Shown here in pieces: positions 25,282-45,744 of a stretch of DNA of 64,000 nucleotides (positions are counted from its first letter, which is position 1; each line of letters starts with the position of its first letter). The notes beneath the pieces were generated by a model. It was not told the origin of the DNA. It was given only the letters and a program-made list of their open reading frames with translations, and searched no databases. Position numbers and translations under genes: made by a program. The stretch is from Minisyncoccota bacterium (GTDB lineage: Bacteria > Patescibacteriota > Minisyncoccia > 2-02-FULL-40-12 > GWA2-44-9). Where the stretch lies: positions 2,974-66,973 of the forward strand of contig DASPGX010000028.1 in assembly GCA_035620375.1 (NCBI GenBank). The letters are read 5' to 3'.

Positions 25282-25737
25282 CTACCGGACGACTTCGATG
25301 GTCTCGCCGAGTTCGGCGAACGGGGCGCGGACGTTAATCCGTCCGTTCGCGTCGCGGTACACCTGATAGCCGGTGGAGGCGACGGTGCCGTTCGTGGTCG
25401 GGTCAACGACCATCGTGGACAGGTACGTCGGTTGGACGCACGCCGCGAGGTCGAAGTTACCGGAACCCGAGCCGACAACCGTGTAGGTGCTCGGCAACGC
25501 CGGACAACCGCCCGTGGTGGGCCAGTTACCGCGGTTGTCAGCCAACCGCTGACCGATGGCGTTCAGCACGGTGTTAATGTTGCTCCAGCGCTGACTGTTC
25601 CGCGCCTGGGCGAACTGCCGGGCGGGGTTCAGAGCCACGATAACGACCGCGGCCAGGATGGCGATGATACCGATGACGACCAGAATCTCGATAAGGGTGA
25701 AACCCTTACGGGTCCGGCCGATATTCCCTCTTTTCAT
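25282..25737 (-). CDS. Type IV pilin (major pilin candidate)
   Basis: Class III signal KGFTLIEILVVIGIIAILAAVV (G/FTLIE prepilin cleavage/methylation motif). Confidence 0.8.
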   Translation of the reverse strand: MKRGNIGRTRKGFTLIEILVVIGIIAILAAVVIVALNPARQFAQARNSQRWSNINTVLNAIGQRLADNRGNWPTTGGCPALPSTYTVVGSGSGNFDLAACVQPTYLSTMVVDPTTNGTVASTGYQVYRDANGRINVRAPFAELGETIEVVR

Positions 25738-25882: not shown

Positions 25883-27325
25883 TCATTTTATCTCGTTCCA
25901 GTTGATGGGAGTGTAATAGCTGGAGGTCTTGGGGAAACTCGGAGGAGGATAAAACAGGAGATTGGGGTCGTAGATGATGATGCGTTGCTGGTACCCGGTG
26001 CCGTCGCTCCAGGCGAATCCGTACCGCTCTTCAGAGCCGATCATCCCGTAGAGCGTGATTTTCTGGCGGACGTGGTTGGGAGAGCACCGTGGCTGGTTGC
26101 CGGAGGGCGGCCGGTAGTAGTAGCGGCCGACCCGGTTGCTCTGCGCCAGGAGCGCACCGTCAATCCGCAGGTCGTCCTCGCTGTCCCATCCGGCATTCAC
26201 ATTGCCCTGGGCTACGAGCGAAATAATATCCTGACCGTCGTAGTTCGTGTACAAAAGGTCCCGGTTGACGGTTATGTGCATCCGGTGGGCGGGATTTTCC
26301 GGGAAACGCCCTGTCGCAATGGTAATCCGGGCCGTATTTATCTGTCCGTCAATCCACACGTGGTCTTCAATGAAGATTATGCCGTTGTCCGGGAACGGAT
26401 AGTTACCGAGAAAGGTTTCGTCTTCAATGCTCCAGGTGTCCCAGTCCTGCTCGCCCAGAACGCTGACGCATCCGTTGGGCGCCTTGATGGTATCCGTCAC
26501 GTCGTAGAGGTCGAAGGTGTCGTTTGTTTTCAGGATGATGTGGTAGCCCTTGTTGCCGACCGTGTTCCGGTAGAAGCCGTCTGCTTGAGCGCTGGCTTTC
26601 AGGTTGGCGAGGTCCTGAGAGAGTCCGGCGAAATCGATGGGCGGAACGGGGAACTGTCTGCCTGCCTTGAAGACGTCCGGGCGGTTCGGCACGGCTGCAG
26701 GGGGGAGCGGGTCCTGCGGCGCGACGTGGGTATGGACGCCGAATTCATCCTGCCCGCTGTGGTCGGGGTCGTTGAACTCGGCGACCGCGCTGGTGACGAG
26801 ATTATGCGCGATGCCGTCGATGCGGACTCCGGAATTCGAGTGGACCGGTCCGAAGATTTCCGAGCCGGGCCCGAAGAACACGTACGAGCCGATGATGGCG
26901 GAGTATTTTGCGAAGGACGGAATGTCCATCTGTGCCTCAATGATTTTCTCGGCGTCCGGATTCACGGTCAGCGTCCCCGTAGACCGGATGGTCAGGAGCG
27001 TGGAGCCCGTTGCCGGAGGCGAAATATCGAGCGTGAACGTTCCGATGAGATTTCCGTCTTTATCGCGGTAGTCATGGACGTACGGCCCCGGAGCGCCGGT
27101 GCCGTCCTGGTAATCCTTGGGCGCATGCGCCAGGTGCCACCGGTAGTATTCAATGCCGGCCTCCGCGATGAGAAAGGCCTGCTCGGCGTCGCTGTCGCGC
27201 CACACCAGCCGGACGTTCGTGTCCGCCCACAGCACGAAGCCGGTCAGGATAATGATGGAAACCGCGCTGAAAATCAGAACCTGTACCGCAATCTGGCCCT
27301 TGTTCCGGTATCCGGTCATGCTCAT
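25883..27325 (-). CDS. Large PilX-like minor pilin / pilus-associated protein (480 aa)
   Basis: N-terminal hydrophobic PilX_N-like segment GQIAVQVLIFSAVSIIILTGFVLWA followed by a large extracellular domain. Overlaps the next gene by 4 nt. Confidence 0.5.
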   Translation of the reverse strand: MSMTGYRNKGQIAVQVLIFSAVSIIILTGFVLWADTNVRLVWRDSDAEQAFLIAEAGIEYYRWHLAHAPKDYQDGTGAPGPYVHDYRDKDGNLIGTFTLDISPPATGSTLLTIRSTGTLTVNPDAEKIIEAQMDIPSFAKYSAIIGSYVFFGPGSEIFGPVHSNSGVRIDGIAHNLVTSAVAEFNDPDHSGQDEFGVHTHVAPQDPLPPAAVPNRPDVFKAGRQFPVPPIDFAGLSQDLANLKASAQADGFYRNTVGNKGYHIILKTNDTFDLYDVTDTIKAPNGCVSVLGEQDWDTWSIEDETFLGNYPFPDNGIIFIEDHVWIDGQINTARITIATGRFPENPAHRMHITVNRDLLYTNYDGQDIISLVAQGNVNAGWDSEDDLRIDGALLAQSNRVGRYYYRPPSGNQPRCSPNHVRQKITLYGMIGSEERYGFAWSDGTGYQQRIIIYDPNLLFYPPPSFPKTSSYYTPINWNEIK

Positions 27326-27927
27326 ATTTCGCCCCTCAAATTACGGATGGTCGCGTCAATTGACTGCGTGAATCCTGCGGGCGGAAGCGTGGGGTCGTCG
27401 TCGACGGTGACGCGCATCCGGATGAGGCGTATCTGTGCGACCGGAACCGGCGCGGAGAGCGAGGCGGTGTTCCCGGTCCATGACAGCCCTTCCCAGTACG
27501 CAAAGATGTCCGGCCCTGGTACGACGGAGGTGATGACGTCCCGCACCTGTTCATCCACGGCAGGATACGTGGCCGGGTTTCCCGTCGGCTCGGTGACGCC
27601 TTTCCGTATCGTCGTTCCGTCCAGGAAGTACCGGATTTGTTCGAACGTTCCGTCTGCGTCCACGTCGGCATAGAACGTGATGCCGTTCGCCGCGGCGGCG
27701 GCAATCGGATAGCTTCCGTTCTCCGAGATGCTCATGGAACGCGCCTCCGAGATGAACGTCCGGAGCGTCCGCTCGACCCCGCGCTCCGAATCCAGCCGGC
27801 TCCCCAGGAGTGTGCCGAAAAAGTTCACGTCGAGGGCGAAATACGTGGCAAGCGTCATGACGCCGGTCGCGACGGCGATGGTGATGAGCAATTCCAGGAT
27901 TGTGACGCCGCGGCGGTGCATCGTCAT
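27322..27927 (-). CDS. Minor pilin / pseudopilin with prepilin-type N-terminal methylation domain
   Basis: RRGVTILELLITIAVATGVM. Confidence 0.65.
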   Translation of the reverse strand: MTMHRRGVTILELLITIAVATGVMTLATYFALDVNFFGTLLGSRLDSERGVERTLRTFISEARSMSISENGSYPIAAAAANGITFYADVDADGTFEQIRYFLDGTTIRKGVTEPTGNPATYPAVDEQVRDVITSVVPGPDIFAYWEGLSWTGNTASLSAPVPVAQIRLIRMRVTVDDDPTLPPAGFTQSIDATIRNLRGEI

Positions 27928-29717
27928 GGATTCAGGGGAACGGTAATACCCTGCCAGTCAGCGATAACGGGAACCTCCGCATTGTAATCGGAGAAACCGG
28001 ACTTTGTGACGGTGAGCGTGTACGTATCATTGGCAAGGCCGCTGAAGAACGCGTTTCCGCCGGGCAGGCATCCGGCGCGGTAGGTGATGCCGACCGCTTC
28101 CAGAGAGGGAGTGGCGTCCTGGTCCAGCGTCCGCATTTCTACCCGGTACCGGAGATAGCGGTTACCGTTGTGCAATGTGGGAAGGTTTCCGCCGGCGCCG
28201 GTATAGAAGGTTGCCGGAGTGCCGTCGGGCCCCGCATAGACCCAGGTAGCGTTGTCGTTGTTCGTGGCAATCTGGAGCCGGACGCTGTCGGTTCCGGTTT
28301 CGGACGGCTGGGACGACGGCGTCATGCCGGCCGAGAAGAATGAGATGCTCGCCGTCCCGAAATCGACGGTTTCCGATTCCAGCCACGCATAGCTTCCCGT
28401 TGCGTGGGGCCCGCCGGGCGGAATGAGCGTAAGTACGCCCGCAGAGGCGGTGTATATTCCGCCGCTCTGCTGGCTGAACTGGCCGCCGCTCCAGTCGCTT
28501 TGGGACCAGGTATTGCGTCCGCTGACGACCGTGACGTCGTACGCGCCGCTGGCAAGGCGCACCGCCGCGTCGTTTAACGGTGTGCCGCCCGGGCCGGTAA
28601 CCGTGACGAGCAGTGACGAGGGGTCCTTCGGCGCCATCAGCCAGGTGACCGCAAGTGACGAACCCGGATTAAGGGTGAACGGCGAGGGATGGCTGGTCCC
28701 GGCGATATCCCACGAAGCGTCCGTGGATCGGGCCGTGAAACTGTCCCATTCCAGCGGTGAGACCGACACGGTGCCGCCGGCGCCGGTCTGGTGCGAAACG
28801 GAGTATTTGGGGATATCCGGAGCGGAGCCGATGAGTTTGGAACCGGTCAGGAGAAAGTCAACGCCTGGTACGGTGCCGCACACCGCGCTCCGCGAGGTGA
28901 AGGCGACGTCACCCGTTACGTCGATGGAAAACGTCGCCACGGTCAGCTGCTCCGCAACGATGGTCAGGTCGGGCTTTGCGGGGTTCGGGTTCGAAGGCTC
29001 GCCGGGCGGATACGTGCGGTCCGTAGAGTAGCCCGCCTTGGTGACGGTCACCCGGTAGCCCGCGGAATCGGTCGCCAGGCCAATGAGCTGAAGGAGGCCG
29101 TCCGCATCCGAAGTGTCCGTGATGTTGACGGCGGGGGTCACTCCCGTGTTGGTGACCGTGATGGTCGCACCCGGCAGTGCGATACCCGAGCCGTCCAGAA
29201 CGCGCACCAGGAGGTACCCGGTCTTCGACGGGTCTTCCAGGTTGCGCGGAGCCAATGTCGTGGTCATCCGGATATCCGAGAACCGCGGGCATGAGGCACA
29301 CAAGATGCGCAGTTCGATGATTTTGTAGTCCGCCGGGTCGGTATCGCCCGGGGTGCCGTCCAGGAGGCCATCGAAGGGGTCGTCAATGTTCCTGACCGTC
29401 GTTTCGACGGTGAACGGCACGCCGCCCACGGTGACCGCCTTGGACGGCGGAAGCAGTCCGGGCGGCACGCCGCCGACCGTGCCGACGTCCTCGTAGCGCA
29501 TATTTCTGATAATCTCCACCTCGGATTCTATGATGTTTGCCGCCGTCGCGTGGTATTGTCCCGCAGTCACGATGTCGAGCGTGTTGCTGTACGACAGATA
29601 CAACCCCGAAGAAACAATGACCAGGATGGTCATGCCGATGAGCGTTTCCAGCAACGTAAAACCGGCCGGGACGCATCCGGCTTTTGTGCGGCCGTCCGTC
29701 GGTGCAAGTTTTCTCAT
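27924..29717 (-). CDS. Giant minor pilin (597 aa) with prepilin-type N-terminus
   Basis: AGFTLLETLIGMTILVIVSSGLYLSY followed by ~550 aa of beta-rich, T/S/G-rich extracellular domain. Confidence 0.6.
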   Translation of the reverse strand: MRKLAPTDGRTKAGCVPAGFTLLETLIGMTILVIVSSGLYLSYSNTLDIVTAGQYHATAANIIESEVEIIRNMRYEDVGTVGGVPPGLLPPSKAVTVGGVPFTVETTVRNIDDPFDGLLDGTPGDTDPADYKIIELRILCASCPRFSDIRMTTTLAPRNLEDPSKTGYLLVRVLDGSGIALPGATITVTNTGVTPAVNITDTSDADGLLQLIGLATDSAGYRVTVTKAGYSTDRTYPPGEPSNPNPAKPDLTIVAEQLTVATFSIDVTGDVAFTSRSAVCGTVPGVDFLLTGSKLIGSAPDIPKYSVSHQTGAGGTVSVSPLEWDSFTARSTDASWDIAGTSHPSPFTLNPGSSLAVTWLMAPKDPSSLLVTVTGPGGTPLNDAAVRLASGAYDVTVVSGRNTWSQSDWSGGQFSQQSGGIYTASAGVLTLIPPGGPHATGSYAWLESETVDFGTASISFFSAGMTPSSQPSETGTDSVRLQIATNNDNATWVYAGPDGTPATFYTGAGGNLPTLHNGNRYLRYRVEMRTLDQDATPSLEAVGITYRAGCLPGGNAFFSGLANDTYTLTVTKSGFSDYNAEVPVIADWQGITVPLNP

Positions 29718-30826
29718 CGTCCGAGTGACTGACTGATTTTGTAGATTGGCGTGATGATGGAAATGGCGACGAAACTTACGACCAATCCCATGGCCAGAAG
29801 CAGGAGCGGTTCCAGGATGTTGCTCATGGTCTTCGTCGCACCGTCCAGCTCGGACTCATAAAATGTTGCGAGGAATTCGAAGGTCTCGTCCAGCTTTCCC
29901 GTGCTTTCGCCGACGTTTGCCATTTGCGAGAACGTCGGCGGGAAGAATTCCGGACGTTCGATCATCAGCTTGCTCATCGTCTGACCCTGCTGGACCTCCT
30001 TCGCGATATCCTCCATCTGCTGCTGGTAGACCAGGTTCGTCAGCGACCGTCCGGAAATATTGATTGCTTCCACGATGCGGACGCCGCCTTTCAGAAGCAG
30101 GTTCATGGTGCGGGCCACGGTTATGATGTTGACGTCCATCACCATTGAGCCCACGAGGGGCATCCGGGTGAGCGAGCGGTGCCAGGCGAACCGGACCGCG
30201 CGTATGCGGAGCAGGAACATCCAGCCGATGCCCAGCACAACCAGTCCCAGAATCACCCAGAGGCCGTTGGCAATCATGAATTCGGAGAACGCGATGAATA
30301 TCCGCGTGGTCAGCGGAAGTTCCACATTGAGCGAGTTGAGCACGGGAAGGATGCGCGGAAAAATGAAGAACGTCATGATTCCCGTGATGCCGAACGTCGC
30401 CACGAGGATGACGATGGGGTAGACCATCGCGCCGACGACTTTCTTCTGCAGTTCCGCCTTCTTTTCCAGTTCCTGGGCAAGGTATTTGAAGTTCTCCGAC
30501 AATGTGCCGGACGTTTCACCGACCCGGACCAAGTTGATGATGAAATCGCCGAACACCTGCTTGTACCGTTCCATGCCGACCGAGAGGTAGTGGCCGTTCT
30601 TCACGTCGGCTATGAGGCTGTCCAGCACCTTCAGGAACGGACGGGACTTGGTCTGCTTCCGGAGAATTTCCAGCGATTCCAAAACCTGAAGTCCCGAGCG
30701 CGTCATCATCTCCATATGGCGCGCAAACAGCATCTTGTCTTTCAGGGACAGCCTGAAGAACAGGCTGCTGAAACCGCCCAGACTGCCGCCCTCGGTTTTC
30801 GGGGGTGTTTCGGTTCCGTTACTCAT
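29714..30826 (-). CDS. pilC: Type IV pilus assembly platform protein PilC (GspF family)
   Basis: Two T2SSF repeats and three TM segments. Overlaps both neighbours. Confidence 0.85.
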   Translation of the reverse strand: MSNGTETPPKTEGGSLGGFSSLFFRLSLKDKMLFARHMEMMTRSGLQVLESLEILRKQTKSRPFLKVLDSLIADVKNGHYLSVGMERYKQVFGDFIINLVRVGETSGTLSENFKYLAQELEKKAELQKKVVGAMVYPIVILVATFGITGIMTFFIFPRILPVLNSLNVELPLTTRIFIAFSEFMIANGLWVILGLVVLGIGWMFLLRIRAVRFAWHRSLTRMPLVGSMVMDVNIITVARTMNLLLKGGVRIVEAINISGRSLTNLVYQQQMEDIAKEVQQGQTMSKLMIERPEFFPPTFSQMANVGESTGKLDETFEFLATFYESELDGATKTMSNILEPLLLLAMGLVVSFVAISIITPIYKISQSLGR

Positions 30827-32570
30827 GAATGACGCGGAGGATTTCTTCGATGGTCGTCAGTCCCTTCAGCGCTTTCTGGAACCCGTCTTCCAGAAGCGTG
30901 GTCATGCCGTTCTTGATGGCGATTTTCTTGATTTCGCTCGCGTCGGCGTGGCGCATGATGGCTTCGCGGATGAAATCGTTGACCTCCAGGATTTCATAGA
31001 TGCCCATCCGGCCCTTGTACCCCGTATGACCGCACATGTCGCAGCCCTTGCCGATGTAGAAGTCGCGGTGGTCATCAAGGATTTCCGGGGTCAGGGAATC
31101 CTTCAGCGACATGAACTCTCCTTCGGTAATGCGCCGCGGCTCCTTGCAGTTCTCGCAAATCATGCGCACCAGCCGCTGGCCCATCGCCACGTTCACCGTG
31201 GATGCGACCAGGAACGGCTCGACGCCCATATCCAACAGGCGCGGCAACGTCGTTGCGGCGTCGTTCGTGTGCAGGGTGGACAGGAGCTTGTGGCCCGTCA
31301 GAGCCGCGTTGACGGCGATGGACGCCGTCTCTTCGTCGCGGATTTCGCCGACCATGATGATGTTCGGGTCCTGCCGGAGGATTGAACGCAGGCCGGCGGC
31401 GAACGTCAGTCCGGTGCGGTTGTTCACCTGAATCTGGTCGATGCCCTCCAGGGAGTACTCGATGGGGTCTTCAATCGTGATGATGGACACTTCGCGCGTG
31501 GAGAGTTCCTTGAGGATGGTGTACAGCGTCGTCGTTTTTCCGGAGCCGGTCGGTCCCGTCGCCAGAATCATGCCGTACGGCGTCTTCACCGCCTTGCGGA
31601 CCTTTTTCCGGTCGGCCTCGCTCAACGCCACGTCGTCCAGCGAATTGAGCTTGGTCTGTTCGGCCAGGAGCCGCAGGACTGCGTTCTCGCCGTAGTAGGT
31701 CGGGACGATGCTGACGCGGACGTCGAACTGCCGGTCGGAGTCCTGCATGCTGATGCGGAACCGGCCGTCCTGTGCCGCCTGGTGTTCGTCGGTCCGCATC
31801 GCACCCAGGACTTTGATGCGGGAGATGATGCCCGGATGGATGCCCTTGGGGAACGTGAACGAATCGCGCAGGATGCCGTCGATACGCAGGCGCGCGAGGA
31901 GGTTTTCTTCGGTCGGCTCAAGATGAATATCCGAAGCACGCGTGAGGAACGCGTATCCCATGAGCGTGTCCACGAGCGCGATAATCGATATCTCGGCTTC
32001 CGGCTTCGTGACAATCTGCTGAATCCGGTCTTTGAGGTCCTGAATCTGTTTGGGGTCCGCTCCCGCGACGTCCGACAAATCTTTGGGCTCCTTCGCGGAA
32101 GCCTTCGCTTTTCCGTTCCGTGCGGATTTCTTCGCGGGTTCCGTTTCGGGGGGCGCGGCCGGCGCCGGTCCGCCTCCTTTGGCCAGCCGCTGTGCCTCGG
32201 CGACGATATCGGAAACGGTGATGTCCCGCTTGACCATCACGGACTCAATGCCGCACGTTTGCGCCCGTTTGCGTTCGTTCTCGTCGTCCTTGTCGAACAG
32301 TACCAGCGCGGGGATGTGCCTCTCCTTTCTGGCGTCTTCGACGAGCTTGCAGTAGTCACCGCCCTCGTGGAGCGGAACGTCCACGACCAGCGCGTCCGGC
32401 GCGTTCTTCTTGAGCATCTGGCGCGCCTCATCGTCGGACGATGCGTGCGACGCCTCAAGCTCCGCCTTCTTGAGGCGTTCCATGAGCAGTTGTGCCATGA
32501 AAAAATTGTCCTCAACGAGGAGGACCCGTCTGCCGCCCGTAGTAGTAGTCCCGTTCTTCCGTGCCGACAT
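30819..32570 (-). CDS. pilB: Type IV pilus assembly ATPase PilB/GspE with N-terminal receiver (REC)-like domain
   Basis: Walker A GPTGSGKTTT, Asp box, His box and tetracysteine CxxC...CxxC (CENC...CDMC). The first ~120 aa (RRVLLVEDN...LVVDV...VMVKRD) resemble a CheY-like receiver. Confidence 0.85.
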   Translation of the reverse strand: MSARKNGTTTTGGRRVLLVEDNFFMAQLLMERLKKAELEASHASSDDEARQMLKKNAPDALVVDVPLHEGGDYCKLVEDARKERHIPALVLFDKDDENERKRAQTCGIESVMVKRDITVSDIVAEAQRLAKGGGPAPAAPPETEPAKKSARNGKAKASAKEPKDLSDVAGADPKQIQDLKDRIQQIVTKPEAEISIIALVDTLMGYAFLTRASDIHLEPTEENLLARLRIDGILRDSFTFPKGIHPGIISRIKVLGAMRTDEHQAAQDGRFRISMQDSDRQFDVRVSIVPTYYGENAVLRLLAEQTKLNSLDDVALSEADRKKVRKAVKTPYGMILATGPTGSGKTTTLYTILKELSTREVSIITIEDPIEYSLEGIDQIQVNNRTGLTFAAGLRSILRQDPNIIMVGEIRDEETASIAVNAALTGHKLLSTLHTNDAATTLPRLLDMGVEPFLVASTVNVAMGQRLVRMICENCKEPRRITEGEFMSLKDSLTPEILDDHRDFYIGKGCDMCGHTGYKGRMGIYEILEVNDFIREAIMRHADASEIKKIAIKNGMTTLLEDGFQKALKGLTTIEEILRVIHE

Positions 32571-32587: not shown

Positions 32588-32977
32588 TCAGGCACCGACG
32601 AGCTCTTTAATCCGTCCGACGATGACGCTCAGGTCATCGGTCTTACGGATGTGGCCCAGGGCACCGATCTCCTTGGCGTACTTTTCGTCAATCCACGCGT
32701 TCTCGACCTCCTCTTCGCCGTAATTCGTCAGAAAGACTACCTTGATGTCGCGGAGGTTCTCGTCCGCCTTCATCGCCGAAACGGCCTCGACGCCGTTCAT
32801 GACCGGCATCTTTACGTCCATGATGACCAGGTCCGGTCGGTCCTTCTGGAGCATGTCCAGCGCCTGTTTGCCGTCCGCGGCTTCCCGTATCTCAAAACCC
32901 GCACCTTCAAGCTTGGCGCGGATGATGGTGCGCAGGTCCGCTTCGTCGTCCACGATGAGGATTTTCGCCGTTGCCAT
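32588..32977 (-). CDS. Stand-alone response-regulator receiver domain protein (CheY-like)
   Basis: KILIVDDEADLRTII...DLVIMDVKMPVMNG...VVFLTNYG...K has the canonical REC Asp/Thr/Lys positions. The ORF-track start at 33166 is an upstream extension. Confidence 0.75.
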   Translation of the reverse strand: MATAKILIVDDEADLRTIIRAKLEGAGFEIREAADGKQALDMLQKDRPDLVIMDVKMPVMNGVEAVSAMKADENLRDIKVVFLTNYGEEEVENAWIDEKYAKEIGALGHIRKTDDLSVIVGRIKELVGA

Positions 32978-33014: not shown

Positions 33015-34652
33015 CTATGCGGCAGGGATAACGATGGTGAATACGCTGCCTTTGCCGGGACCCTCGGATGCGGCAGTAATGGTGCCCTGGTGGGCCAGTA
33101 CAATCTGCTTGGCGATATAGAGGCCAAGGCCCGTGCCCTCAATGCGCTTTGCAGCGTCCCGTTCACGGGTGAACTGCTCGAACAGCTGCGGGAGGAGGTC
33201 CGCCGGCATTCCGCGGCCGCTGTCGGACACGATGACGAAAATGTCGCTGCCGCGCCGCTCCGCGGCGACCTTCACCCACCCGGTCTCCGTGTACTTGATG
33301 GAATTGTCCACGAGATTCTGGATGACCTGCCGGAATTTTTCGGTGTCCAGCATGGCGTTCAGCTCGTCGTGTTCCGGCGTTTCATGCCGGAGTTCAAGAT
33401 TCTTACGCTCGGCGAGGGGCAACAGGTCGTTGACCACCTGCGTGACGAGGTTGGACATACTGACGCGGTCGAACGCGAACTGCATCCGGCCCTCCTCAAT
33501 GCGCCGGAGGTCCAGGAGGTTGTTCACCAGCGCAATCAGCCGGTCGGCCGATTCCTTGATTTTGCCCACCATTTCCGTGACCTTCTCCGGCACCGTGCCG
33601 TAGGTGCCGTCGCCGATGAGCTGGGCATAGCCCTTCACGACGCTCATCGGCGCCTTTACCTGGTGCGAGGCGAACGAAAGGAATTCGGAGCGGATGCGGT
33701 CCAGGCGCTTGAGCTTGATGTTCGCGTCCGTCAGCTCCCGGGTCATCTGTTCAAGGTGCTCCCGCTGGGATACCTCGCTGATGACGCTGCGGATGAGCAG
33801 GATGCCGAATGCCAGCACGAACGAGAACGTGCCGATGCGGATGAGCAGCGTGCCGACGTTGTCCGTCACGACAATCTCAGCGAGCAGTATTGCGCTGAGC
33901 ACGAAGGTCAGCAGCTCCGCGGCGATGGCTTTGACGTTCAGGAACTGGTACCGGCGGATGGCATGGGACGTGGCGAGGATGATGGGAAGGAAGAAAATGG
34001 GCGCGAGCGGGACGAATAGCAGCATGTCGAATGCCACGGGCAGAATGAGGTTGAACGTCAGGATGAGCAGGAATGTCAGCGCGGCGCCGGCGAGGATGAT
34101 TCTGGCCTGCGCCCGCTCAAGCGTCGCAGGTCCACCGGTACGCCGTACAAGCATCACGATACCGGCGACGACGAACACGGCCGCAACCATCCCGAATACG
34201 GGCAATGCCGGTCCGCGAATCGGGTCGGTCACGCCGCTCACGGCGACCGAGTCGACGCGCTCAAAGATGAACCGTGAAAGCGTCAGCAGGGAAGTCAGGA
34301 CCGCAGCGGGAAGCGCGACGAATTTGTACCATCGCGGGAAGGTGATTTCGGCGCGCGGAAAGATGTAGAACAGCGTGAAGAAGCTGAACGCGTGCCAGGT
34401 TGCGGTGAACAGCGTCAGCCGCAGAAGCCAGAGCACCTGCCACGGCTCCTGGACCTGGTAATTCAGGTAATTGAACGTGCCGTACGCGACCGTGGCCAGC
34501 GCGAAGACGAGGAATGCCCGGTTCGTGGCATTGCTGCGGTCGCTGAAATAGACCGCGAACCCCATAATGCCGATTGCCGCCACCGCGATGGCGATGGCGA
34601 TGAGGTCCAAATGGCGCAAGCCCGCCAGGAGGTCGGTGATGGCGAATTCCAT
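33015..34652 (-). CDS. Sensor histidine kinase with N-terminal multi-TM (7TM-type) sensor domain
   Basis: ~7 predicted TM helices in the first 300 aa, then the HisKA H-box SFASHQVKAP and HATPase_c N/G1/G2 boxes (NLVDNSIKYT, DSGRGM, GTGLGL). Confidence 0.8.
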   Translation of the reverse strand: MEFAITDLLAGLRHLDLIAIAIAVAAIGIMGFAVYFSDRSNATNRAFLVFALATVAYGTFNYLNYQVQEPWQVLWLLRLTLFTATWHAFSFFTLFYIFPRAEITFPRWYKFVALPAAVLTSLLTLSRFIFERVDSVAVSGVTDPIRGPALPVFGMVAAVFVVAGIVMLVRRTGGPATLERAQARIILAGAALTFLLILTFNLILPVAFDMLLFVPLAPIFFLPIILATSHAIRRYQFLNVKAIAAELLTFVLSAILLAEIVVTDNVGTLLIRIGTFSFVLAFGILLIRSVISEVSQREHLEQMTRELTDANIKLKRLDRIRSEFLSFASHQVKAPMSVVKGYAQLIGDGTYGTVPEKVTEMVGKIKESADRLIALVNNLLDLRRIEEGRMQFAFDRVSMSNLVTQVVNDLLPLAERKNLELRHETPEHDELNAMLDTEKFRQVIQNLVDNSIKYTETGWVKVAAERRGSDIFVIVSDSGRGMPADLLPQLFEQFTRERDAAKRIEGTGLGLYIAKQIVLAHQGTITAASEGPGKGSVFTIVIPAA

Positions 34653-34655
34653 AGT

Positions 34656-35762
34656 TCAGGCCGAGCGGTCGCCGGCGGGGCGTACGTCGGGCTCAAGTCG
34701 CGGCGTCCGTGCGCTCGGCTCGTCCGCGTGACCGATGCGGAACATGAATGCCAGAACGCCATCGGATAACTTAAGAACGGATGCGAGGCGGGCGTAAGCG
34801 TCCGCGACAATTGACGCATGGCGCTCGGCCAGGGTCCGGTCGCCGTCCGCAACGCGGTTCATCAGCAGGGGAATTCCCGTCAGTGGCTGCAGGTGCAGTC
34901 CCATGGATGTTACGGAGAGCCATACGCGTTCGAAGAGACGCCCCGCGGCGACATACTGGGTCGTATCTCGGTTGGGGATGACGATTGCGCCCATAGCCGC
35001 GCCGGTCATATAGATGCCGCCGTTCGTTTTCGCGACCATGGATGACAGGCCGACCGCATTGAGCGCGCGCAGTGCGGGAAAATGCCTGAATACGGCGAAT
35101 CCTGCGCGCACCGGCGGAGGAAGCTCAAACGTCTTGATGGAGAATCCGAGTTTTCGTGCTGCGTCCTGCTCATCCGTCCAGTTGATGTGCGAAAAGAAGA
35201 ACCGGTGCATGTTCCGGTCTTCGAACAGGACACGCTCGTTCAGCGCCAACAGGTTGCCCAGTTCCTGACGGCGCGCCGTATCGGTTACCAGAATAAGCTG
35301 CGGTCCGCTTTCGGCCGTCTTCATCAGTGCGTCATGTTGGACCGCGGTCAGCTCGGCGTTGCGGTACGGACGTCGGTTCGTCGCACGCTTCCAGATGGAC
35401 TCGTAGAGCGGATGCGCGGCCTGGGTCGCGCGCTCCAGATACGCCCGGGCAATCCAGTCAGGATCACTGGGGGTCGGCAGGACCTTCGCGGAAAGCCGGT
35501 AGCCACGCTGCGCGGCGGCAATGGACATGTTTTCCAGGACCGCGCCGTTGGCGATATACGAGGGCCGCTGCCCCCAGCTGTAGAGGGAATTGTCCCGCTC
35601 GGGAAGATTGAAGACGTCGATGAAACCGGGTCCGACTTCAAACCGCCATGGCTGGCAGTTGTCGCCCGATGGAGCCATCGTACCCGCGGTGATGATGTGC
35701 AGGACATCCTCATCGAGCGTCGGCGGCTTCTGGCTCATCATTGTCTTTAGTATATCACGCAT
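34656..35762 (-). CDS. Nitroreductase-family (FMN) oxidoreductase, long form
   Basis: APSGDNCQPWRF nitroreductase signature near the N-terminus. About 370 aa, so probably tandem/extended nitroreductase folds. GGAAG RBS upstream of the ATG at 35762; the ORF-track start at 35924 would overlap the upstream gene by 100 nt. Confidence 0.7.
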   Translation of the reverse strand: MRDILKTMMSQKPPTLDEDVLHIITAGTMAPSGDNCQPWRFEVGPGFIDVFNLPERDNSLYSWGQRPSYIANGAVLENMSIAAAQRGYRLSAKVLPTPSDPDWIARAYLERATQAAHPLYESIWKRATNRRPYRNAELTAVQHDALMKTAESGPQLILVTDTARRQELGNLLALNERVLFEDRNMHRFFFSHINWTDEQDAARKLGFSIKTFELPPPVRAGFAVFRHFPALRALNAVGLSSMVAKTNGGIYMTGAAMGAIVIPNRDTTQYVAAGRLFERVWLSVTSMGLHLQPLTGIPLLMNRVADGDRTLAERHASIVADAYARLASVLKLSDGVLAFMFRIGHADEPSARTPRLEPDVRPAGDRSA

Positions 35763-35824
35763 GCTGGTCTTCCGTGCCGCGTTCATACACAGAAGAAACC
35801 CCGCGTTGTGCGGGGTTTCGGGAC

Positions 35825-36988
35825 TCAGATGCCGAGTTTCGTCTTGAGCATGTCGGCGAGGCGTTTCCGTTCGCGGACCGCGATGTCCGAGGAATAGCCG
35901 GGGTCCAGGTTTTCGTCCAGACACAGGTGGTACCGTCCGCTTGGCATGGCGTCGCCCGCAACGATCCCCCTGATGAGATAGGTGACGGCGGATGCGCCTA
36001 TGAGCGCAGTGCCACCGAGCTGCGGAACGGATACGAGTGTTTCCCCGATGGCGGGAAGCGAACGTATCATGCGTACCGGATGATGCTCGGCGCCGATAAG
36101 CCGGGCGATGGTCCTTATCGTTTCCTGTTTATTCCCCCGCAACGCTGAAAAGCGGGCGACGTCGGTTGTGCCCAGCCGCCCGAGGAAATAGGGCGTACGG
36201 CCCAGGTCGTGCCGCTCAACGTCAATGGTGCTCCGGTCGCCGTTGTCGGCCGCTGACAACAGCGGTATGCGCTGCTTCCGGGCGAGTTCGCGCAGACGCT
36301 GTTTGATGACGAAGTCGTCCATTTCGTCCACGACGACATCCAGTCCGCGCATGAACGAAGCGACGTTCGTTGCATTCAGTCCGCGGTCGAAAATGCCCAC
36401 ATGGGCGTAGGGGTTTATTTCCCAGATCCGGCGCGCGATGACGGTGGTCTTCGGAAGGCCGAGCTGGTGGACTCCCGCGATGAGGCGGTTCGTGTTGGAC
36501 AGTTCGAGCTCGTCGAAATCGGCAAGGCGGATGCGCCGGGCTCCGCCGGCAAGCACCACGGAAAGTGCAACGTTGCTGCCCACAGACAGTCCGGCGACAC
36601 CGACGACCGTGTCATAAAACTTCTTCTGTTCCGCGAAGGTGATAAGATTCGCGTTTCTGCTGGTACGGACCCGGTTGAACTCGGGTTCCGCAAGTACGTG
36701 CACAAGGGTGTTCAGCCACGGATAGTGCACCCATCGTCCCTGGCGGATCAGAGGTCCGCGTCGGGTCCGTCCGGCGATGAATGCACCGACGGCTTCGGCA
36801 ATCTTTTCCTTCGGAAGCCGGATGAGCCCCGGCTGTTCGACGAGCGCGAGTTCCGCCAGCTGACCGGCGTACGTGTCGACGATTCCCGGTTTCCGGAGTC
36901 CGGAACGCAGGCGTCCGAACGCGCGCCACGAAGCGGCGGCGGCGGGATTGAATATCTTCGGTTGTTCCCGTTTCTCCATGAGGTTCAT
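35825..36988 (-). CDS. E1-like (ThiF/MoeB/HesA family) protein with N-terminal ~120-aa extension and degenerate nucleotide loop
   Basis: VVGVAGLSVGSNVALSVVLAGGARRIRLADFDELELSNTNR matches the ThiF Rossmann plus D-x-D ... SNLNRQ block, but GxGxxG is degenerate (GVAGLSVG). Confidence 0.65.
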   Translation of the reverse strand: MNLMEKREQPKIFNPAAAASWRAFGRLRSGLRKPGIVDTYAGQLAELALVEQPGLIRLPKEKIAEAVGAFIAGRTRRGPLIRQGRWVHYPWLNTLVHVLAEPEFNRVRTSRNANLITFAEQKKFYDTVVGVAGLSVGSNVALSVVLAGGARRIRLADFDELELSNTNRLIAGVHQLGLPKTTVIARRIWEINPYAHVGIFDRGLNATNVASFMRGLDVVVDEMDDFVIKQRLRELARKQRIPLLSAADNGDRSTIDVERHDLGRTPYFLGRLGTTDVARFSALRGNKQETIRTIARLIGAEHHPVRMIRSLPAIGETLVSVPQLGGTALIGASAVTYLIRGIVAGDAMPSGRYHLCLDENLDPGYSSDIAVRERKRLADMLKTKLGI

Positions 36989-38520
36989 TCCTTGATAAGG
37001 TACTTCGGCTTAAGTCCCGGGCGGAAATGCTCCGGGTCCTGGTAGTTTTTCAGAATCACCCTCGGGGTCAAATCTTTGCCGAGATGGTTCCAGAGAAAGT
37101 CGTATTCCATGTTGATTCTGCGCAGCACTCCGACGACATGCCGCGAAAGCGCGCGGGCGAGTGACGCGGCCGGCCGCTTGCCGGGCTGAAGTTCAATGTT
37201 GAGCTCAAGGAAGGCCTCATGTTTACGGTCGTATCCCTTGCGCAGGGCGAACTTCCCGGTGATGTCGCCGAGGAATTTCTCCGCGTTCAGCGCCGCATGG
37301 ACGTGCTCGGGATAGATGTTCGCGGCATAGAATACGAGAGTATGGTCGCTGCGCCCTTTGAGCGCAATGAACGGCAGTTTCCACGAACCGGCCGGCACAG
37401 TACGGCCGGATTTCCGCAGCGCCGCAACACCGTCGGCATATGGGATAACGGTTCCCGCGTCGTGGAGGTTGAACCGGATGAGCGGAATACCGCTGTCGGA
37501 GGTGAACAACAGTTCCCCGTTCAGCCGGGCGACATGGCGGAGCAACGGATTGTACTGGAACAGGTTCGGTACGGTCGCGGAAGCGAAGAGGTTCCCGCAC
37601 AATTCCGGGTCGGCCGATGCGGCACGGCGGAGGGCGACGGTCAGCGGCGTTTCGTGGCCGATGAGCAACGTCTCCGACGAACCGTACGTGTTCATGGCCG
37701 CGACCGCGTCGGCCGCAAGACCCGCGGCGCGGTTCAGATACGAACGCCAGGCCTCACTGAATCCTTCACTGCAAAAAAGCATCCGGAGGCCCGACTTCCG
37801 CCAGGAGAGGCCTGCGCGCTTGCCGGACTCCACGACGTCTTTCACGAAGAACGGATGTCCGATGAGCAGGACCTGGTCATAGTTGCGCCGGAGTTTGCCG
37901 ATGACGTTGAGCGCCTGGTCCTTGTTGTTTCCGACGCTCACGGCGGTAAGCGGATAGCCGCGCTGGGCCGTGAGCCATGTCGGCAGGAGCGTGGCAACGC
38001 CGGAAACATAGACGCCCATCGGAAAGCCGATGACGGCGAGCGTGGATTTGCGGTGGATGCCGAACAGCGTCCGGTAGGCGAGTTCATGAATGAGCGTCGC
38101 CTCCATTTCCTGGCGCTGGCCCCGGGGCCAGAACTTCGGTTCGCCGCTCGTACCCGAGCTCACCGCGATGAGCGATGCGTTCCGGAGTTTTCCGTCCCAG
38201 CACCGCGCCGCCAGCGGATACCGGTTCACATAGTTTGCCTTGTCGGTGAAGGGCACGCCGTCCAGGTCGGCGGCAGTACGTACGGCACGACCGTTGATGC
38301 GGTGCCGCCGGAGGAAGTCGCGGTACGCCGGGACGCGTTCGGCCGCGGCATGGAAGAGGGCGAGCGCGCGGCGGTCGCCCTGGCGCACCCACCGCCCGGG
38401 CGCATCGCGGCGGAGCGATGACTCCATCGCCGCAATGTCCGTGCGCCAATAGTCCGCGATGCCGGCGCGGAACAGAGGCGCTGCCGCGAGCGTGTTCCAG
38501 GTGTCCCGTTTCGTACTCAT
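36985..38520 (-). CDS. Adenylate-forming enzyme, GH3-like / PaaK(F390-synthetase)-like acyl-AMP ligase
   Basis: SSGTSGEPKFWPRG P-loop-like adenylation motif. At 511 aa it is closer to GH3-type amido synthetases than to PaaK. 4-nt overlaps with both neighbours. Confidence 0.6.
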   Translation of the reverse strand: MSTKRDTWNTLAAAPLFRAGIADYWRTDIAAMESSLRRDAPGRWVRQGDRRALALFHAAAERVPAYRDFLRRHRINGRAVRTAADLDGVPFTDKANYVNRYPLAARCWDGKLRNASLIAVSSGTSGEPKFWPRGQRQEMEATLIHELAYRTLFGIHRKSTLAVIGFPMGVYVSGVATLLPTWLTAQRGYPLTAVSVGNNKDQALNVIGKLRRNYDQVLLIGHPFFVKDVVESGKRAGLSWRKSGLRMLFCSEGFSEAWRSYLNRAAGLAADAVAAMNTYGSSETLLIGHETPLTVALRRAASADPELCGNLFASATVPNLFQYNPLLRHVARLNGELLFTSDSGIPLIRFNLHDAGTVIPYADGVAALRKSGRTVPAGSWKLPFIALKGRSDHTLVFYAANIYPEHVHAALNAEKFLGDITGKFALRKGYDRKHEAFLELNIELQPGKRPAASLARALSRHVVGVLRRINMEYDFLWNHLGKDLTPRVILKNYQDPEHFRPGLKPKYLIKE

Positions 38521-40121
38521 CCGGAAAAGAGTGGGGATATGCGCGGGGTACGCCAGGCGACATCCAGACCTGCGCCGGCCCTGATGAGGTCGGTGACCGC
38601 GGGGAGCTCATCCACCAGAACCCGGTCTTTGGTGACCGCGGGGAATACACGGCGCACGGCGCGGTACAATTCCGACGCCGCGGGCGAAAGCCGCCGCGTC
38701 GCCCGCATGACGTCGGTCGCCTGGGCGAGCGTGATGAGTTCCACGGCGCACAGGATGCGCAGGTCCTCGGCCGTTTTCATCGTCAGCAGTGCCGAGTCGG
38801 TGCCCATACTCACGACGTCCTGGTTGTCGGCATTCGTGGACATGGAGTGAACGCGGTGCGGATACGCCATGGACTGGGCGTGTGACGCGGTGGAGGTCGC
38901 CACGAACTGCAGGCCCTGCAGGGAAAGGTTCAGGCCGGCGGTCGCCAGATTCAGAAACGGCGGCAATCTTCGGTTCACGTTCCGGTTCAGGAAGAAATTA
39001 ATCTGTCGCTCCGCCAGCAGCGTCAGTTTCGCCATCGCCGCGCGGAGTTCGTCGGCAGCCTGTGCGACGTATTCGCCGTGAAAGTTCCCGCCGTGCAGGA
39101 ATTTTCCCGACACCGGGTCCACGATGGGATTGTCGGTAACGGAGTTTATCTCCGTCTCAACCGTCTCCCGGGAGCGGGCCAACACGTCCAGCGACGGGCC
39201 GACAATCTGGGGGATACACCGGAAGGAATAGATTTCCTGCACGTCCTCGTCGATGAACCGTGTCGCTTCCGTGATGCGGTGCTTGCGTTGGAAAGCCTCG
39301 CGCTGCTTGATGAGCCGGGAGCCGGCGGTGAGTTCGCGCAGGGCAAGGCCGACGGTCAGCTGGCCGCGGTGCGGACGCAGTTCGTGCAGGCGTTCGGACA
39401 GTCCGTCCGCGAACGCGCCGATGAGTTCCAGAGCCCAGGCGCCCGAGCGGACGGCGACCGAGAGCAGGCGGTCGGCGTCGCGGCAGGCGACCGCCATGAT
39501 GCCGGCCATGAACGAAGTGCCGTTGATGACCGCGAGCCCGTCGCGCGGGATGAGGCGGTACGGCTCAAGTCCCGCAAGTTTCAGTGCCCGCGCGGCCGGC
39601 ATGCGTTCATCGCGGTACCGCACATGCCCCTCACCGATAAGCGCCAGTCCGACATGCGCGAGCTGTACGAGGTCGCCGCTCGTGCCCACGGCCCCGTGTT
39701 CGGGAACTTCGGGAATGATGCGGTGGTTGATGACCGCCGCGAGCGCGTGCAACAGCTCGGCGGAGACCCCCGACATGCCGCGGGCAAGCGTGTTGAGCCT
39801 GACCAGCATGGCGGCAAGCACCAACGGGTCCGGCACCGGCGCGCCCATGCCGACCGCGTGGCTCCGGATGAGGTTCGTCTGCAACTCCGTCAGCGCTTTG
39901 CGGGAAATGAGGTGCGAGGCCATCGGTCCGAATCCCGTGTTCACGCCGTAGATGACTTTGCTGGTCAGGTTCTTCTCCAGCATCATCCGGCTTTCCTGCG
40001 TCCGCGCAAAAACATCGTCGTCAATAACCGCCGACATTTTCGGGTCGGCGACAAATGCCCAGATGCGCCTGATGTCCAGGTCGCCGCCGGTGATGAGCAA
40101 TGTGCGCGGCATGTTGTGCAC
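38517..40121 (-). CDS. Aromatic amino-acid ammonia-lyase/aminomutase (HAL/PAL/TAL family, MIO cofactor; T-S-G triad variant)
   Basis: GVNTGFG, the MIO-forming GTSGDLVQLAH (TSG rather than ASG), NGTSFMAG and SVTDNP blocks. Confidence 0.8.
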   Translation of the reverse strand: MHNMPRTLLITGGDLDIRRIWAFVADPKMSAVIDDDVFARTQESRMMLEKNLTSKVIYGVNTGFGPMASHLISRKALTELQTNLIRSHAVGMGAPVPDPLVLAAMLVRLNTLARGMSGVSAELLHALAAVINHRIIPEVPEHGAVGTSGDLVQLAHVGLALIGEGHVRYRDERMPAARALKLAGLEPYRLIPRDGLAVINGTSFMAGIMAVACRDADRLLSVAVRSGAWALELIGAFADGLSERLHELRPHRGQLTVGLALRELTAGSRLIKQREAFQRKHRITEATRFIDEDVQEIYSFRCIPQIVGPSLDVLARSRETVETEINSVTDNPIVDPVSGKFLHGGNFHGEYVAQAADELRAAMAKLTLLAERQINFFLNRNVNRRLPPFLNLATAGLNLSLQGLQFVATSTASHAQSMAYPHRVHSMSTNADNQDVVSMGTDSALLTMKTAEDLRILCAVELITLAQATDVMRATRRLSPAASELYRAVRRVFPAVTKDRVLVDELPAVTDLIRAGAGLDVAWRTPRISPLFSG

Positions 40122-43557: not shown

Positions 43558-43700
43558 CCGGACCTCTTTCCTTTTTCCGCGGTTTCCGTATAATCGGGTC
43601 TGTATTTTTGAATACACTTCGCCTATGCGGAGTGTATTCGTCCCGAGGAGCCGCGCCCGTGTGCCCGGCGACGGGATTTCACGCTTTTCCGTAAACCGGT

Positions 43701-45689
43701 ATGGATATTTTCCTCGTATCTCTCATCGCGGCGGTTGTTGCGCTTGTGTATGGCGCGTTTCTTGCATGGACCGTACTGAAGCAGCCTGCGGGTGATGAGC
43801 GTATGCAGAGCATTGCGCGCGCCATTCAGGAGGGTGCGTCTGCATATCTGAAGCGCCAGAACCGGACCGTCATCATCGTGGGCGTGCCGGTAACGGTCGC
43901 ACTGTACTTCCTGCTCGGATGGGGCACGGCCGCCGGGTTCGTCGTCGGCGCGTTCGCTTCCGCGCTTGCGGGCTGGCTCGGCATGGCGGTGGCGGTACGC
44001 GCGAATGTCCGCGTCGCGGAGCAGGCGAAGTACGGCATGGCCCCGGCGTTCTCCCTGGGATTTAAGGGCGGTGCGGTCACCGGATTCGCGGTGGTCGGTC
44101 TCGCCCTGCTCTCGCTGACCGTTTTCTATTGGCTCACCGGTGACGTCATTGCGTTGATTGGCCTCGGTTTCGGCGCCTCGCTTATCTCGGTCTTTGCGCG
44201 TTTGGGCGGCGGCATCTTCACCAAGGGCGCCGACGTCGGCGCCGACCTGGTGGGCAAGATTGAAGCGGGAATCCCCGAAGACGACCCGCGAAATCCGGCG
44301 GTTATCGCCGACAACGTCGGCGATAATGTCGGCGACGATGCGGGCATGGCAGCGGACCTCTTTGAAACATACGTGGTCTCGGCGATTTCCGTCATGCTCC
44401 TGACGCATCTTCTGCTTCCGCAGTTCCCCGAACTGGTCAAACTTCCTCTGCTCATCGGCGCCGCCGCGGTCGTCGCGTCCGTCGTCGGTTCGTTCTTCGT
44501 GCGTCTGCGGGGAAGCATCATGGGTGCGCTGTACCGCGGCGGCATCGTGACGGCCGGCGTCGCCGCCGCGCTGTTCTGGGCGATGACGAAGTATGCGCCG
44601 GTCATTACCGAACTCGGCGAAGAGGCGGGCACGGTAATCTTTTGGTCGCTTATCATCGGTATCGCGGTCACCGCGTTGATGGTTCTCATCACCGAGTACT
44701 ACACGTCCAAGCGGTTCCGCCCTGTCCGTGCCATCGCTGAGGCGAGCACCACGGGCCATGGCACAAACGTCATCATGGGACTGGCCATGAGCATGCAGGC
44801 CACGGCGCTTCCGCTGGTCGTCATCGGCGGGGCCATGCTCGGTGCGTACCAGCTTGCCGGTCTGTACGGCATCGCACTGGCGACCATGAGCATGCTGTCG
44901 CTGACGGGTATGGTCGTCGCCATTGATGCGTTCGGACCCATCACCGACAATGCCGGCGGCATCGCGGAGATGGCGAAGCTTCCCCAGGAAGTCCGCGACG
45001 TCACCGACCCGCTGGACGCGGTCGGAAACACGACCAAGGCGGTCACCAAGGGGTACGCCATCGCGTCGGCCGGCCTTGCCGCGCTGGTGCTGTTCGCCGC
45101 CTACACGCAGGAACTGCAGGCCGCGGGCCGGTTCGTACTGTTCATGCTTGCCGATGTGCGCGTGCTCGTCGGCCTGCTCATCGGCGGCATGATGCCGTAT
45201 CTGTTCGGCTCGTTCGCGATGCAGGCGGTTTCCAAGGCGGGCTCGGCGGTCGTGGACGAAGTTCGCCGTCAGTTCCGCGAGAAGCCCGGCATCATGACCG
45301 GCACCGACAAGCCGGATTACGGTTCGGCCGTGGACATCGTCACTAAGGCGGCCATCCGCGAAATGATTATTCCGGCGCTCATTCCGGTCGTCTTTCCCAT
45401 CGCCGTCGGTTTCCTGCTGGGGCCTGAGGCGCTCGGCGGTCTGCTGGTCGGAACCATCGTGACGGGTCTGTTCGTCGCCATCTCCATGACCTCGGGCGGT
45501 GGTGCATGGGACAACGCGAAGAAATACATTGAAGAGGGCAATCACGGCGGCAAGGGCTCCGACGCCCACAAGGCCGCAATCACCGGAGACACCGTGGGCG
45601 ACCCGTATAAGGATACGGCAGGGCCGGCGATTAATCCGATGATTAAAGTCGCCAACATTGTGGCTCTCTTGATAGCCCGCTTCATCTAA
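43701..45689 (+). CDS. hppA: Membrane-bound H+(or Na+)-translocating pyrophosphatase
   Basis: [33 protein letters not shown] and DNAGGIAEM signature blocks. 662 aa and multi-TM. Confidence 0.95.
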
Positions 45690-45744
45690 GAGTATCTCCA
45701 CACCAAACACCCCGCTCCGGCGGGGTGTTTGGTATAATGAGGAC

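Follow-up and report, generated by a model that had tools for sequence, protein, structure and literature searches.

We analyzed a window of 64,000 nucleotides from a Minisyncoccota bacterium (assembly GCA_035620375.1, contig DASPGX010000028.1, positions 2,974 to 66,973; G+C content of the window approximately 61%). It contains a gene encoding a receiver (REC) domain fused to an assembly ATPase of the PilB/GspE type, here called REC::ATPase. The fusion is real and occurs clade-wide. The gene lies in an operon with a membrane histidine kinase, a separate single-domain receiver and genes for pilus components, and sequence and synteny suggest that phosphorylation most likely gates the motor, acting on it directly or by way of the single receiver. 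That pilus extension is under direct phospho-control appears plausible. The open reading frame (ORF) proposed for this gene in an initial annotation, which gave no strand, is real and continuous, encodes 583 amino acids (aa) and runs on the minus strand (Table 1). Its start codon is preceded by an AAGGAGG Shine-Dalgarno sequence 6 nucleotides (nt) upstream. In a homolog search the product exactly matched a protein of a 'Candidatus Paceibacterota' metagenome-assembled genome (MAG; P0001), whose deposited annotation reads merely 'ATPase, T2SS/T4P/T4SS family'.

Receiver and ATPase domains of the fusion protein

The N-terminus of REC::ATPase matched the Pfam family Response_reg (PF00072) over residues 16-115 with 36.1 bits at a gathering score of 30.2 (E 7.8e-9). 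When residues 14-129 were searched alone against the PDB sequences, PleD D1, CheY and RR468 were recovered with E values of 1e-10 to 1e-7. An AlphaFold2 (AF2) model of residues 1-136, calculated from an alignment of 30 homologs, reached a mean pLDDT of 88.8 and displayed the doubly wound (βα)5 order from β1 through α5 (β1 14-19, α1 23-35, β2 38-43, α2 46-56, β3 60-64, α3 73-84, β4 88-92, α4 97-105, β5 110-113, α5 119-130). Foldseek comparison with the PDB returned receiver domains in all of the 50 matches listed, among them KdpE, VicR, MicA, DesR, PhoP, PhoB and RR468. Target-normalised TM scores were approximately 0.75-0.9 for isolated receiver domains, with rmsd values mostly between 1.5 and 2.7 Å. 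The CheY-like receiver that the initial annotation had claimed for the N-terminus is thus borne out by family and PDB sequence matches, by the predicted fold and by structural comparison.

Canonical PilB, MshE and GspE carry MshEN at this position, and so do most other high-scoring ATPases in a library of 1.84 billion representative proteins. Both facts would favor a diverged MshEN/T2SSE_N (N1) domain, which binds cyclic di-GMP (c-di-GMP), with a superficial likeness to a receiver. The initial annotation had itself named such an assignment as the result that would speak against its proposal. However, neither MshEN nor T2SSE_N was matched by Pfam at the REC::ATPase N-terminus at E values up to 0.01, structure prediction gave a (βα)5 receiver fold and not the helical fold of MshEN, and the structural matches listed were exclusively receivers. 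An MshEN identity of the N-terminus is refuted by these three lines of evidence, and we assign it a negligible probability.

Residue equivalences were derived by aligning the family hidden Markov model (HMM) to E. coli CheY, and the alignment to PleD agreed with them. As expected from the receiver-type spacing recognized initially, the acidic pair E20-D21, the predicted phospho-acceptor D64 and K114 are present. In contrast, the conserved Thr/Ser is absent and the position is occupied by F92, which corrects the earlier description. By alignment, one of the five receiver signature residues is therefore replaced and the receiver is atypical. Furthermore, V111 stands at the position of CheY Y106, where most relatives have Tyr, and R115 stands at the position of CheY P110, where relatives have Ala, so that Lys-Pro has become Lys-Arg in this protein. 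Among 30 diverse members, identity in the receiver domain is just 22-44%. The β1-α1 loop, α1 and β3 are the most conserved receiver elements; α4 is among the least conserved.

The linker between receiver and ATPase is the least conserved segment of the protein (mean top-residue frequency 0.32), and its residues 137-167 had pLDDT values below 50 in the full-length AF2 model. This model consists, in order, of a confident receiver, the disordered residues 137-167, a helix (173-188), the N2 domain and the catalytic domain. The full-length monomer had a pTM of 0.34 and holds no usable information on the docking site of the receiver. Pfam T2SSE covered residues 194-579 with 398.5 bits, and residues ~200-580 aligned with N2 and the C-terminal domain of Thermus PilF, Geobacter PilB and Vibrio GspE, its nearest relatives of known structure (PDB sequences, E ~1e-107 to 1e-99). 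The Walker A motif, Asp box, Walker B motif, His box and the four cysteines are invariant across 42 homologs. The complete secretion ATPase with Walker A/B motifs, His box and tetracysteine site described at the outset was thus recovered motif by motif. The tetracysteine motif, which is present in REC::ATPase, is typical of extension rather than retraction ATPases. Scores for the two NCBIfam equivalogs tested (TIGR02533/TIGR02538) were below cutoff, with 501.9 at a cutoff of 630.25 for GspE and 472.3 at a cutoff of 675.65 for PilB. Judged by its domains and motifs, REC::ATPase belongs to the PilB/GspE class of ATPases, which drive the assembly (extension) of type IV filaments. The earlier statement that the receiver stands instead of N1/N2 holds for N1 (MshEN/T2SSE_N), which is absent, but not for N2, which is retained intact.

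Distribution and origin of the fusion

The two-domain architecture of receiver and ATPase recurs in nearly all of the best 120 database homologs, which are 58-71% identical to REC::ATPase overall, and a scan of species-representative genomes found it in approximately 20 species-level genomes. This recurrence bears on the possibility that a receiver gene was joined to a short ATPase artificially, by a frameshift, by read-through or in a chimeric MAG contig. The source is indeed a metagenome-assembled genome, and both a stand-alone receiver gene and REC-less short ATPases occur in the group. However, the same continuous ORF recurs in the representative genomes and in over 100 independent proteins, which derive from many different samples and assemblers, and a separate single receiver exists besides the fusion. 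Moreover, the fused receiver is no closer to the neighboring receiver than to E. coli CheY (50.8 and 48.9 bits, respectively, against the family HMM). Recurrence effectively refutes an artefact, which we regard as extremely improbable. By the same two scores, a recent duplication of the neighboring receiver as the source of the fused one is unsupported.

All 80 loci returned by the genome scan belong to Patescibacteria/Parcubacteria MAGs by gene content, a few of them with doubtful titles. Where gene calls exist, the REC-fused proteins measure 558-590 aa; they are found in Yanofskybacteria, Paceibacterota, Minisyncoccia and one Jorgensenbacteria genome. With few exceptions, the remaining ~58 loci encode ATPases of just ~403-450 aa and stem from groups that include Wolfe-, Harrison-, Jorgensen-, Brenner-, Doudna- and Veblenbacteria. 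Ahead of the conserved 'SII-LVD' motif at which N2 starts, these short ATPases have 17-60 residues and no N1 domain. Many of them precede the same PilC and large pilin-like genes, and none of those at the loci scanned has the pair of kinase and receiver beside it. Because the ATPases of the sister lineages have no N1 domain, the comparison indicates that receiver and linker were added to an ATPase ancestrally devoid of N1 and were not swapped in for N1/N2. In a rough neighbor-joining tree of the ATPase cores, too crude to separate one from two fusion events, the main REC-fused set formed one clade and locus L061 was placed apart.

A profile search of the 1.84 billion representative proteins, which cannot exclude independent REC fusions in distant T2SSE families, yielded two REC-covering representatives (P0127 and P0134) among the best 150 matches. 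Ten other matches of this search were scanned and contained MshEN or no recognisable N-terminal regulatory domain; two of these were tandem double ATPases of ~1000 aa.

Some further observations concern the ATPases of related genomes. The short N1-less ATPase is the common PilB-like ATPase of many Parcubacteria lineages (most of L024-L084). One MAG carries both a REC-fused ATPase (L012, CAYUJB010000003.1) and a short REC-less one (L062, CAYUJB010000022.1); the fused version there is therefore an additional system and not the sole pilus motor. At another locus (L088:8001-11160) a second T2SSE ATPase of 493 aa, this one without REC, directly follows the REC-fused one and precedes PilC. Many Parcubacteria/Moranbacteria proteins of ~1000 aa (P0121-P0133, P0272-P0344) comprise two complete T2SSE units in tandem, some with an MshEN N-terminus, and outscore single-unit ATPases against the profile. 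Loci titled 'Gammaproteobacteria bacterium', 'Nanoarchaeota archaeon' (L030, L076) and, in many cases, 'uncultured Candidatus Saccharibacteria' look Parcubacteria-like in their ATPase, PilC and, where the contig reaches, pilin; these taxonomic labels of MAGs look unreliable.

Operon context and proposed control of the motor

The operon, which is conserved in and specific to Parcubacteria, has the order 7TM kinase, single receiver, REC::ATPase, PilC/GspF and the 597-aa, 201-aa and 480-aa proteins, all encoded on one strand with overlaps or gaps of at most 37 nt. Gaps of 17-37 nt separate the kinase, single receiver and REC::ATPase genes, and the start of PilC/GspF overlaps the ATPase stop by 8 nt. 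The PilC/GspF and pilin genes are translationally coupled downstream of REC::ATPase. Both the single receiver and the kinase, already pointed out as neighbors in the initial annotation, are real according to Pfam. The single receiver has a complete signature quintet in all 16 orthologs aligned. Three homolog loci examined individually share the gene order, and ~14 of ~20 distinct REC-fused loci in the species-representative genomes have the kinase and single receiver genes upstream. The pair was also found upstream of the sister fusions at L061, L087 and L088.

A second homolog search was seeded with P0127, and 141 REC-fused ATPases were aligned to the family HMM. The alignment displayed a natural series of receiver states, given here in the order acidic pair / Asp / T87 position / Lys. 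The window subfamily (123 sequences) reads E-D / D / F or L / K. Fully canonical receivers read either ED / D / T / K (P0127, P0271 and the L061 product P0275) or DD / D / S / K (P0298, P0343), and an intermediate state, E-S / D / S / K, is found in L023, P0352 and P0355. In an Asp-less group, D64 is changed to S or G, usually together with K114 to E (P0325, the 'Liptonbacteria' protein P0326, P0339, P0346, P0348, P0356); P0333 and P0350 are Asp-less with the Lys kept. Sister subfamilies have T or S at position 92. Genomic context tracked the receiver state in the few cases examined. Upstream of P0343 (L087) and P0355 (L088), nitroreductase-like and ThiF-like genes are followed by the 7TM kinase and then by the single receiver; the L087 set also has the ligase described below, and L061 has a comparable upstream arrangement. 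A kinase is missing within 8 kb of both Asp-less fusions examined, P0325 (L085) and P0348 (L086).

We consider it fairly probable that the 7TM kinase phosphorylates D64 as well as the single receiver, and that the phosphorylated tethered receivers gate the hexameric motor or its engagement with PilC. On sensing a signal, the membrane kinase would donate a phosphoryl group to both receivers, at D64 in the case of the fused one. Phosphorylation would alter the placement of the six tethered receivers on the hexamer, their pairing around it or their pairing with the single receiver, and ATPase activity or platform engagement would thereby be switched on or off. Pilus assembly would come under two-component control instead of c-di-GMP/MshEN control. 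For the window subfamily, a functional phospho-site seems the most economical reading because the acidic pair, Asp and Lys are invariant here and decayed in sister lineages, and because the linkage to the kinase is tight. The invariance of E20, D21, D64 and K114 is meaningful since sister subfamilies show decay at these positions (D to S/G, K to E). A clade-wide fusion of receiver and motor also argues, Rosetta-stone style, for direct receiver-to-motor control. As the usual Thr-Tyr switch has Phe here in place of its Thr/Ser, coupling of the phospho-site to the output is probably non-canonical in the window subfamily. Substitutions of CheY T87 have been reported to uncouple phosphorylation from output (PMC13636085).

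Several observations weigh against this mechanism, and in the main alternative the fused receiver would not itself be the phospho-target. It would serve as a docking module for the phosphorylated single receiver, forming a REC-REC heterodimer, or as a constitutive oligomerisation or localisation domain, and the kinase would signal via the separate receiver alone. We regard this arrangement as possible, though rather unlikely. It would agree with the fused receiver lacking both the Thr/Ser (F92) and the Lys-Pro motif (Lys-Arg here, Lys-Ala in the family) and with the intact quintet of the single receiver in 16 of 16 aligned orthologs. It would likewise agree with the Asp/Lys-less sister fusions, which keep the fold and, in P0325 and P0348, a fully canonical single-domain receiver immediately upstream. 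The α1 motif 'F-x-A-E/Q-L-L' is kept irrespective of kinase or Asp, being retained in Asp-less, kinase-less variants, which also supports the alternative. Conservation of this motif as evidence for kinase docking was abandoned, as the motif persists without Asp or kinase. Two further points count against phospho-gating through D64. Conservation within the receiver is lowest on the α4-β5-α5 face, where output surfaces usually lie, and strong constraint on a canonical output surface is therefore not obvious. Moreover, six REC-fused loci (L006, L009, L010, L014-L016) have neither kinase nor single receiver upstream, where unrelated genes were found in the ~3.6-10 kb scanned.

On the other hand, these six loci without a nearby single receiver keep D64, which speaks against the docking alternative. 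The acidic pair, Asp and Lys are unsubstituted at the aligned positions in 120 homologs and decayed elsewhere, which argues for their use. Docking and direct gating are also compatible with each other, as both receivers could need phosphorylation to pair; a hybrid, in which both receivers are phosphorylated and then pair, is possible.

Gating of the motor through its own receiver would differ from the known inputs to related ATPases. PilB, PilF, MshE and GspE have the same N2 and catalytic domains, Walker A/B motifs, Asp and His boxes and tetracysteine motif, and are paired with PilC/GspF and pilins. In contrast, they carry MshEN as c-di-GMP input, whereas REC::ATPase has a receiver and a disordered linker with phosphorylation as the implied input. 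How the extension motor of type IV pili (T4P) is switched is an open question; the inputs are c-di-GMP/MshEN, PilZ/FimX and response regulators, the latter often without a clear link to PilB (PMC11656802). Trans-acting regulators of PilB, namely the PatA-type PATAN-REC proteins PixG, PixE and LsiR, PilG/PilH and Xanthomonas DrdR, resemble the present case in that a kinase-controlled receiver protein modulates the T4P extension motor. However, they are separate proteins, whereas here the receiver is covalently part of the motor. PatA-type regulators bind the N-terminal half of PilB1 (bioRxiv 10.1101/2021.06.11.447907). They contact PilB through PATAN and not through REC, and REC::ATPase is without a PATAN domain. 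PilG/PilH influence the localisation of PilB (PMC11656802). Both groups of regulators offer a precedent for the proposed mechanism. FimX, in the PilB-PilZ-FimX complex, is similar in that a non-canonical receiver is implicated in control of T4P assembly, but its REC is Asp-less and lies within a c-di-GMP effector, not an ATPase; REC::ATPase has kept D64.

Receivers attached to ATPases are also found in other systems. In the REC-AAA+ ATPases NtrC, NtrC1, DctD and LuxO, phosphorylation of the tethered receiver controls ring assembly or activity. These AAA+ sigma-54 activators are non-homologous to REC::ATPase, a PilT-class secretion ATPase, and provide a mechanistic analogue only. TadZ/CpaE of Tad/Flp pili combine an Asp-less atypical receiver with a MinD/ParA-like ATPase and act as localisation factor, not as motor. 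They share with REC::ATPase a receiver-like fold on an ATPase of a type IV filament system, whereas the fusion described here is on the T2SSE motor itself and its Asp is invariant.

No published description of a REC-PilB fusion was found by full-text literature searches of incomplete coverage or in a 2024 review on PilB regulation. As the architecture is visible in precomputed Pfam annotations, it appears to be un-described rather than undetected. Receivers are commonly fused to many kinds of output; their presence on the T4P motor makes direct phospho-control experimentally testable. Two soluble receivers, one kinase core and one ATPase constitute a tractable in vitro system for phospho-control of pilus assembly, and the family offers a natural set of mutants with canonical, Thr-less and Asp-less receivers on one motor. 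In cultivated Patescibacteria, attachment to the host is driven by type IV pili (PMC11623550), and the linkage of a two-component system to a pilus operon suggests that host contact is regulated.

Genes of the pilus cluster and its surroundings

Table 1. Features of REC::ATPase and of the surrounding genes in the window
Feature	Position	Strand	Basis
REC::PilB/GspE-like ATPase gene	30819..32570	minus	ORF, ATG start, 583 codons and stop; Pfam Response_reg and T2SSE
Receiver (REC) domain, residues 14-131, (βα)5 topology	32178..32531	minus	Pfam, AF2, Foldseek
Acidic pair E20-D21 (CheY D12/D13)	32508..32513	minus	HMM alignment to CheY; 103/103 ungapped homologs
D64, predicted phospho-acceptor Asp (CheY D57, PleD D53)	32379..32381	minus	Alignments; 120/120 homologs
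F92 at the conserved Thr/Ser position (CheY T87)	32295..32297	minus	Alignments; F in 106/120, L in 12/120 homologs
K114 (CheY K109)	32229..32231	minus	Alignment; 120/120 homologs
Pro/Ala/Lys/Glu-rich flexible linker, residues 132-172	32055..32177	minus	AF2 and conservation
Pre-N2 helix (173-188) and N2 domain (~196-320)	31611..32054	minus	Pfam, PDB alignment, AF2 secondary structure
Catalytic C-terminal domain	30822..31610	minus	Walker A 339-346, Asp box 367-371, Walker B 404-412, His box from 425
Tetracysteine (zinc) motif C472-x2-C475 ... C510-x2-C513	31032..31157	minus	4/4 Cys invariant
Single-domain response regulator, 129 aa, full DD/D/T/K quintet, α4 insertion	32588..32977	minus	Pfam Response_reg, 82.8 bits
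Sensor histidine kinase: HisKA_7TM membrane domain, HisKA, HATPase_c	33015..34652	minus	Pfam; H, N, G1, F and G2 boxes
PilC/GspF platform protein	29714..30826	minus	Pfam T2SSF, 188 bits; NCBIfam GspF/PilC
Large pilin-like protein, 597 aa, prepilin-type N-terminus with CarboxypepD_reg, Big_1 and PEGA-like regions	27924..29717	minus	Pfam N_methyl, CarboxypepD_reg; GFTLLE motif
Pilin-like protein, 201 aa, hydrophobic prepilin-like N-terminus	27322..27927	minus	Sequence, synteny; faint/weak N_methyl in orthologs
Conserved 480-aa protein, N-terminal hydrophobic helix, prepilin-like	25883..27325	minus	Sequence
Candidate major pilin, 151 aa, KGFTLIE prepilin motif	25282..25737	minus	Pfam N_methyl, E 4e-8
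Surface protein, 558 aa: signal peptide, fn3-like region, C-terminal transmembrane segment	23554..25230	minus	Weak fn3 match, sequence, synteny
Four co-oriented genes: tyrosine/aromatic ammonia-lyase, PaaK-like adenylate-forming ligase, ThiF-like, nitroreductase-like	34656..40121	minus	Profile matches

Downstream of the seven closely spaced genes, the 151-aa pilin and the 558-aa surface protein are set off by larger gaps of 145 and 51 nt, and conservation of the cluster ends with the latter gene. N_methyl is matched by two of the pilin-like proteins; the prepilin-type features of the other two were judged from sequence by their hydrophobic N-termini. The 597-aa protein is syntenic in relatives. 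The 480-aa protein had no match in Pfam or NCBIfam; it is 51-69% identical in relatives and is among the best-conserved downstream genes of the cluster. Neither PilT, PilM/N/O, PilD, a secretin nor a second PilB was found among the 40 window ORFs scanned.

The four co-oriented genes directly upstream of the kinase have 4-nt start/stop overlaps and possibly belong to the same operon. The best NCBIfam match of the ammonia-lyase was the flexirubin tyrosine ammonia-lyase (TAL) FlxA with 540 bits, which is below the cutoff. The match of the PaaK-like ligase was weak, and the ThiF-like and nitroreductase-like proteins match the two halves of the 'Rv1355c family'. The gene set co-occurs with the kinase in L002, L011-13, L017-20, L061, L087 and L088. 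TAL and an acyl ligase are the pair that activates p-coumarate, which is why the lyase, ligase, ThiF and nitroreductase genes could make a ligand or cofactor of the kinase. We tentatively extend the phosphorylation mechanism in this direction, in a form that is unlikely to hold in all its parts. The 7TM kinase would phosphorylate D64 of the motor directly, and the Thr-less receiver would gate the hexamer by non-canonical coupling, possibly paired with the phosphorylated single receiver. What the kinase senses would be an aromatic (p-coumarate-derived) ligand or cofactor produced by the TAL, ligase, ThiF and nitroreductase genes. If true, a type IV filament motor would for the first time be a direct target of two-component phosphotransfer, and the genes would form a self-contained signal-to-pilus module in an episymbiotic bacterium of the Candidate Phyla Radiation.

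Elsewhere in the window, a 707-aa ORF on the minus strand (43623-45746) had no Pfam match. In the equivalent neighborhood of relatives, an H+-pyrophosphatase lies near RmuC. A 662-aa ORF on the plus strand (43701-45689), which overlaps the 707-aa ORF, may be the real gene.

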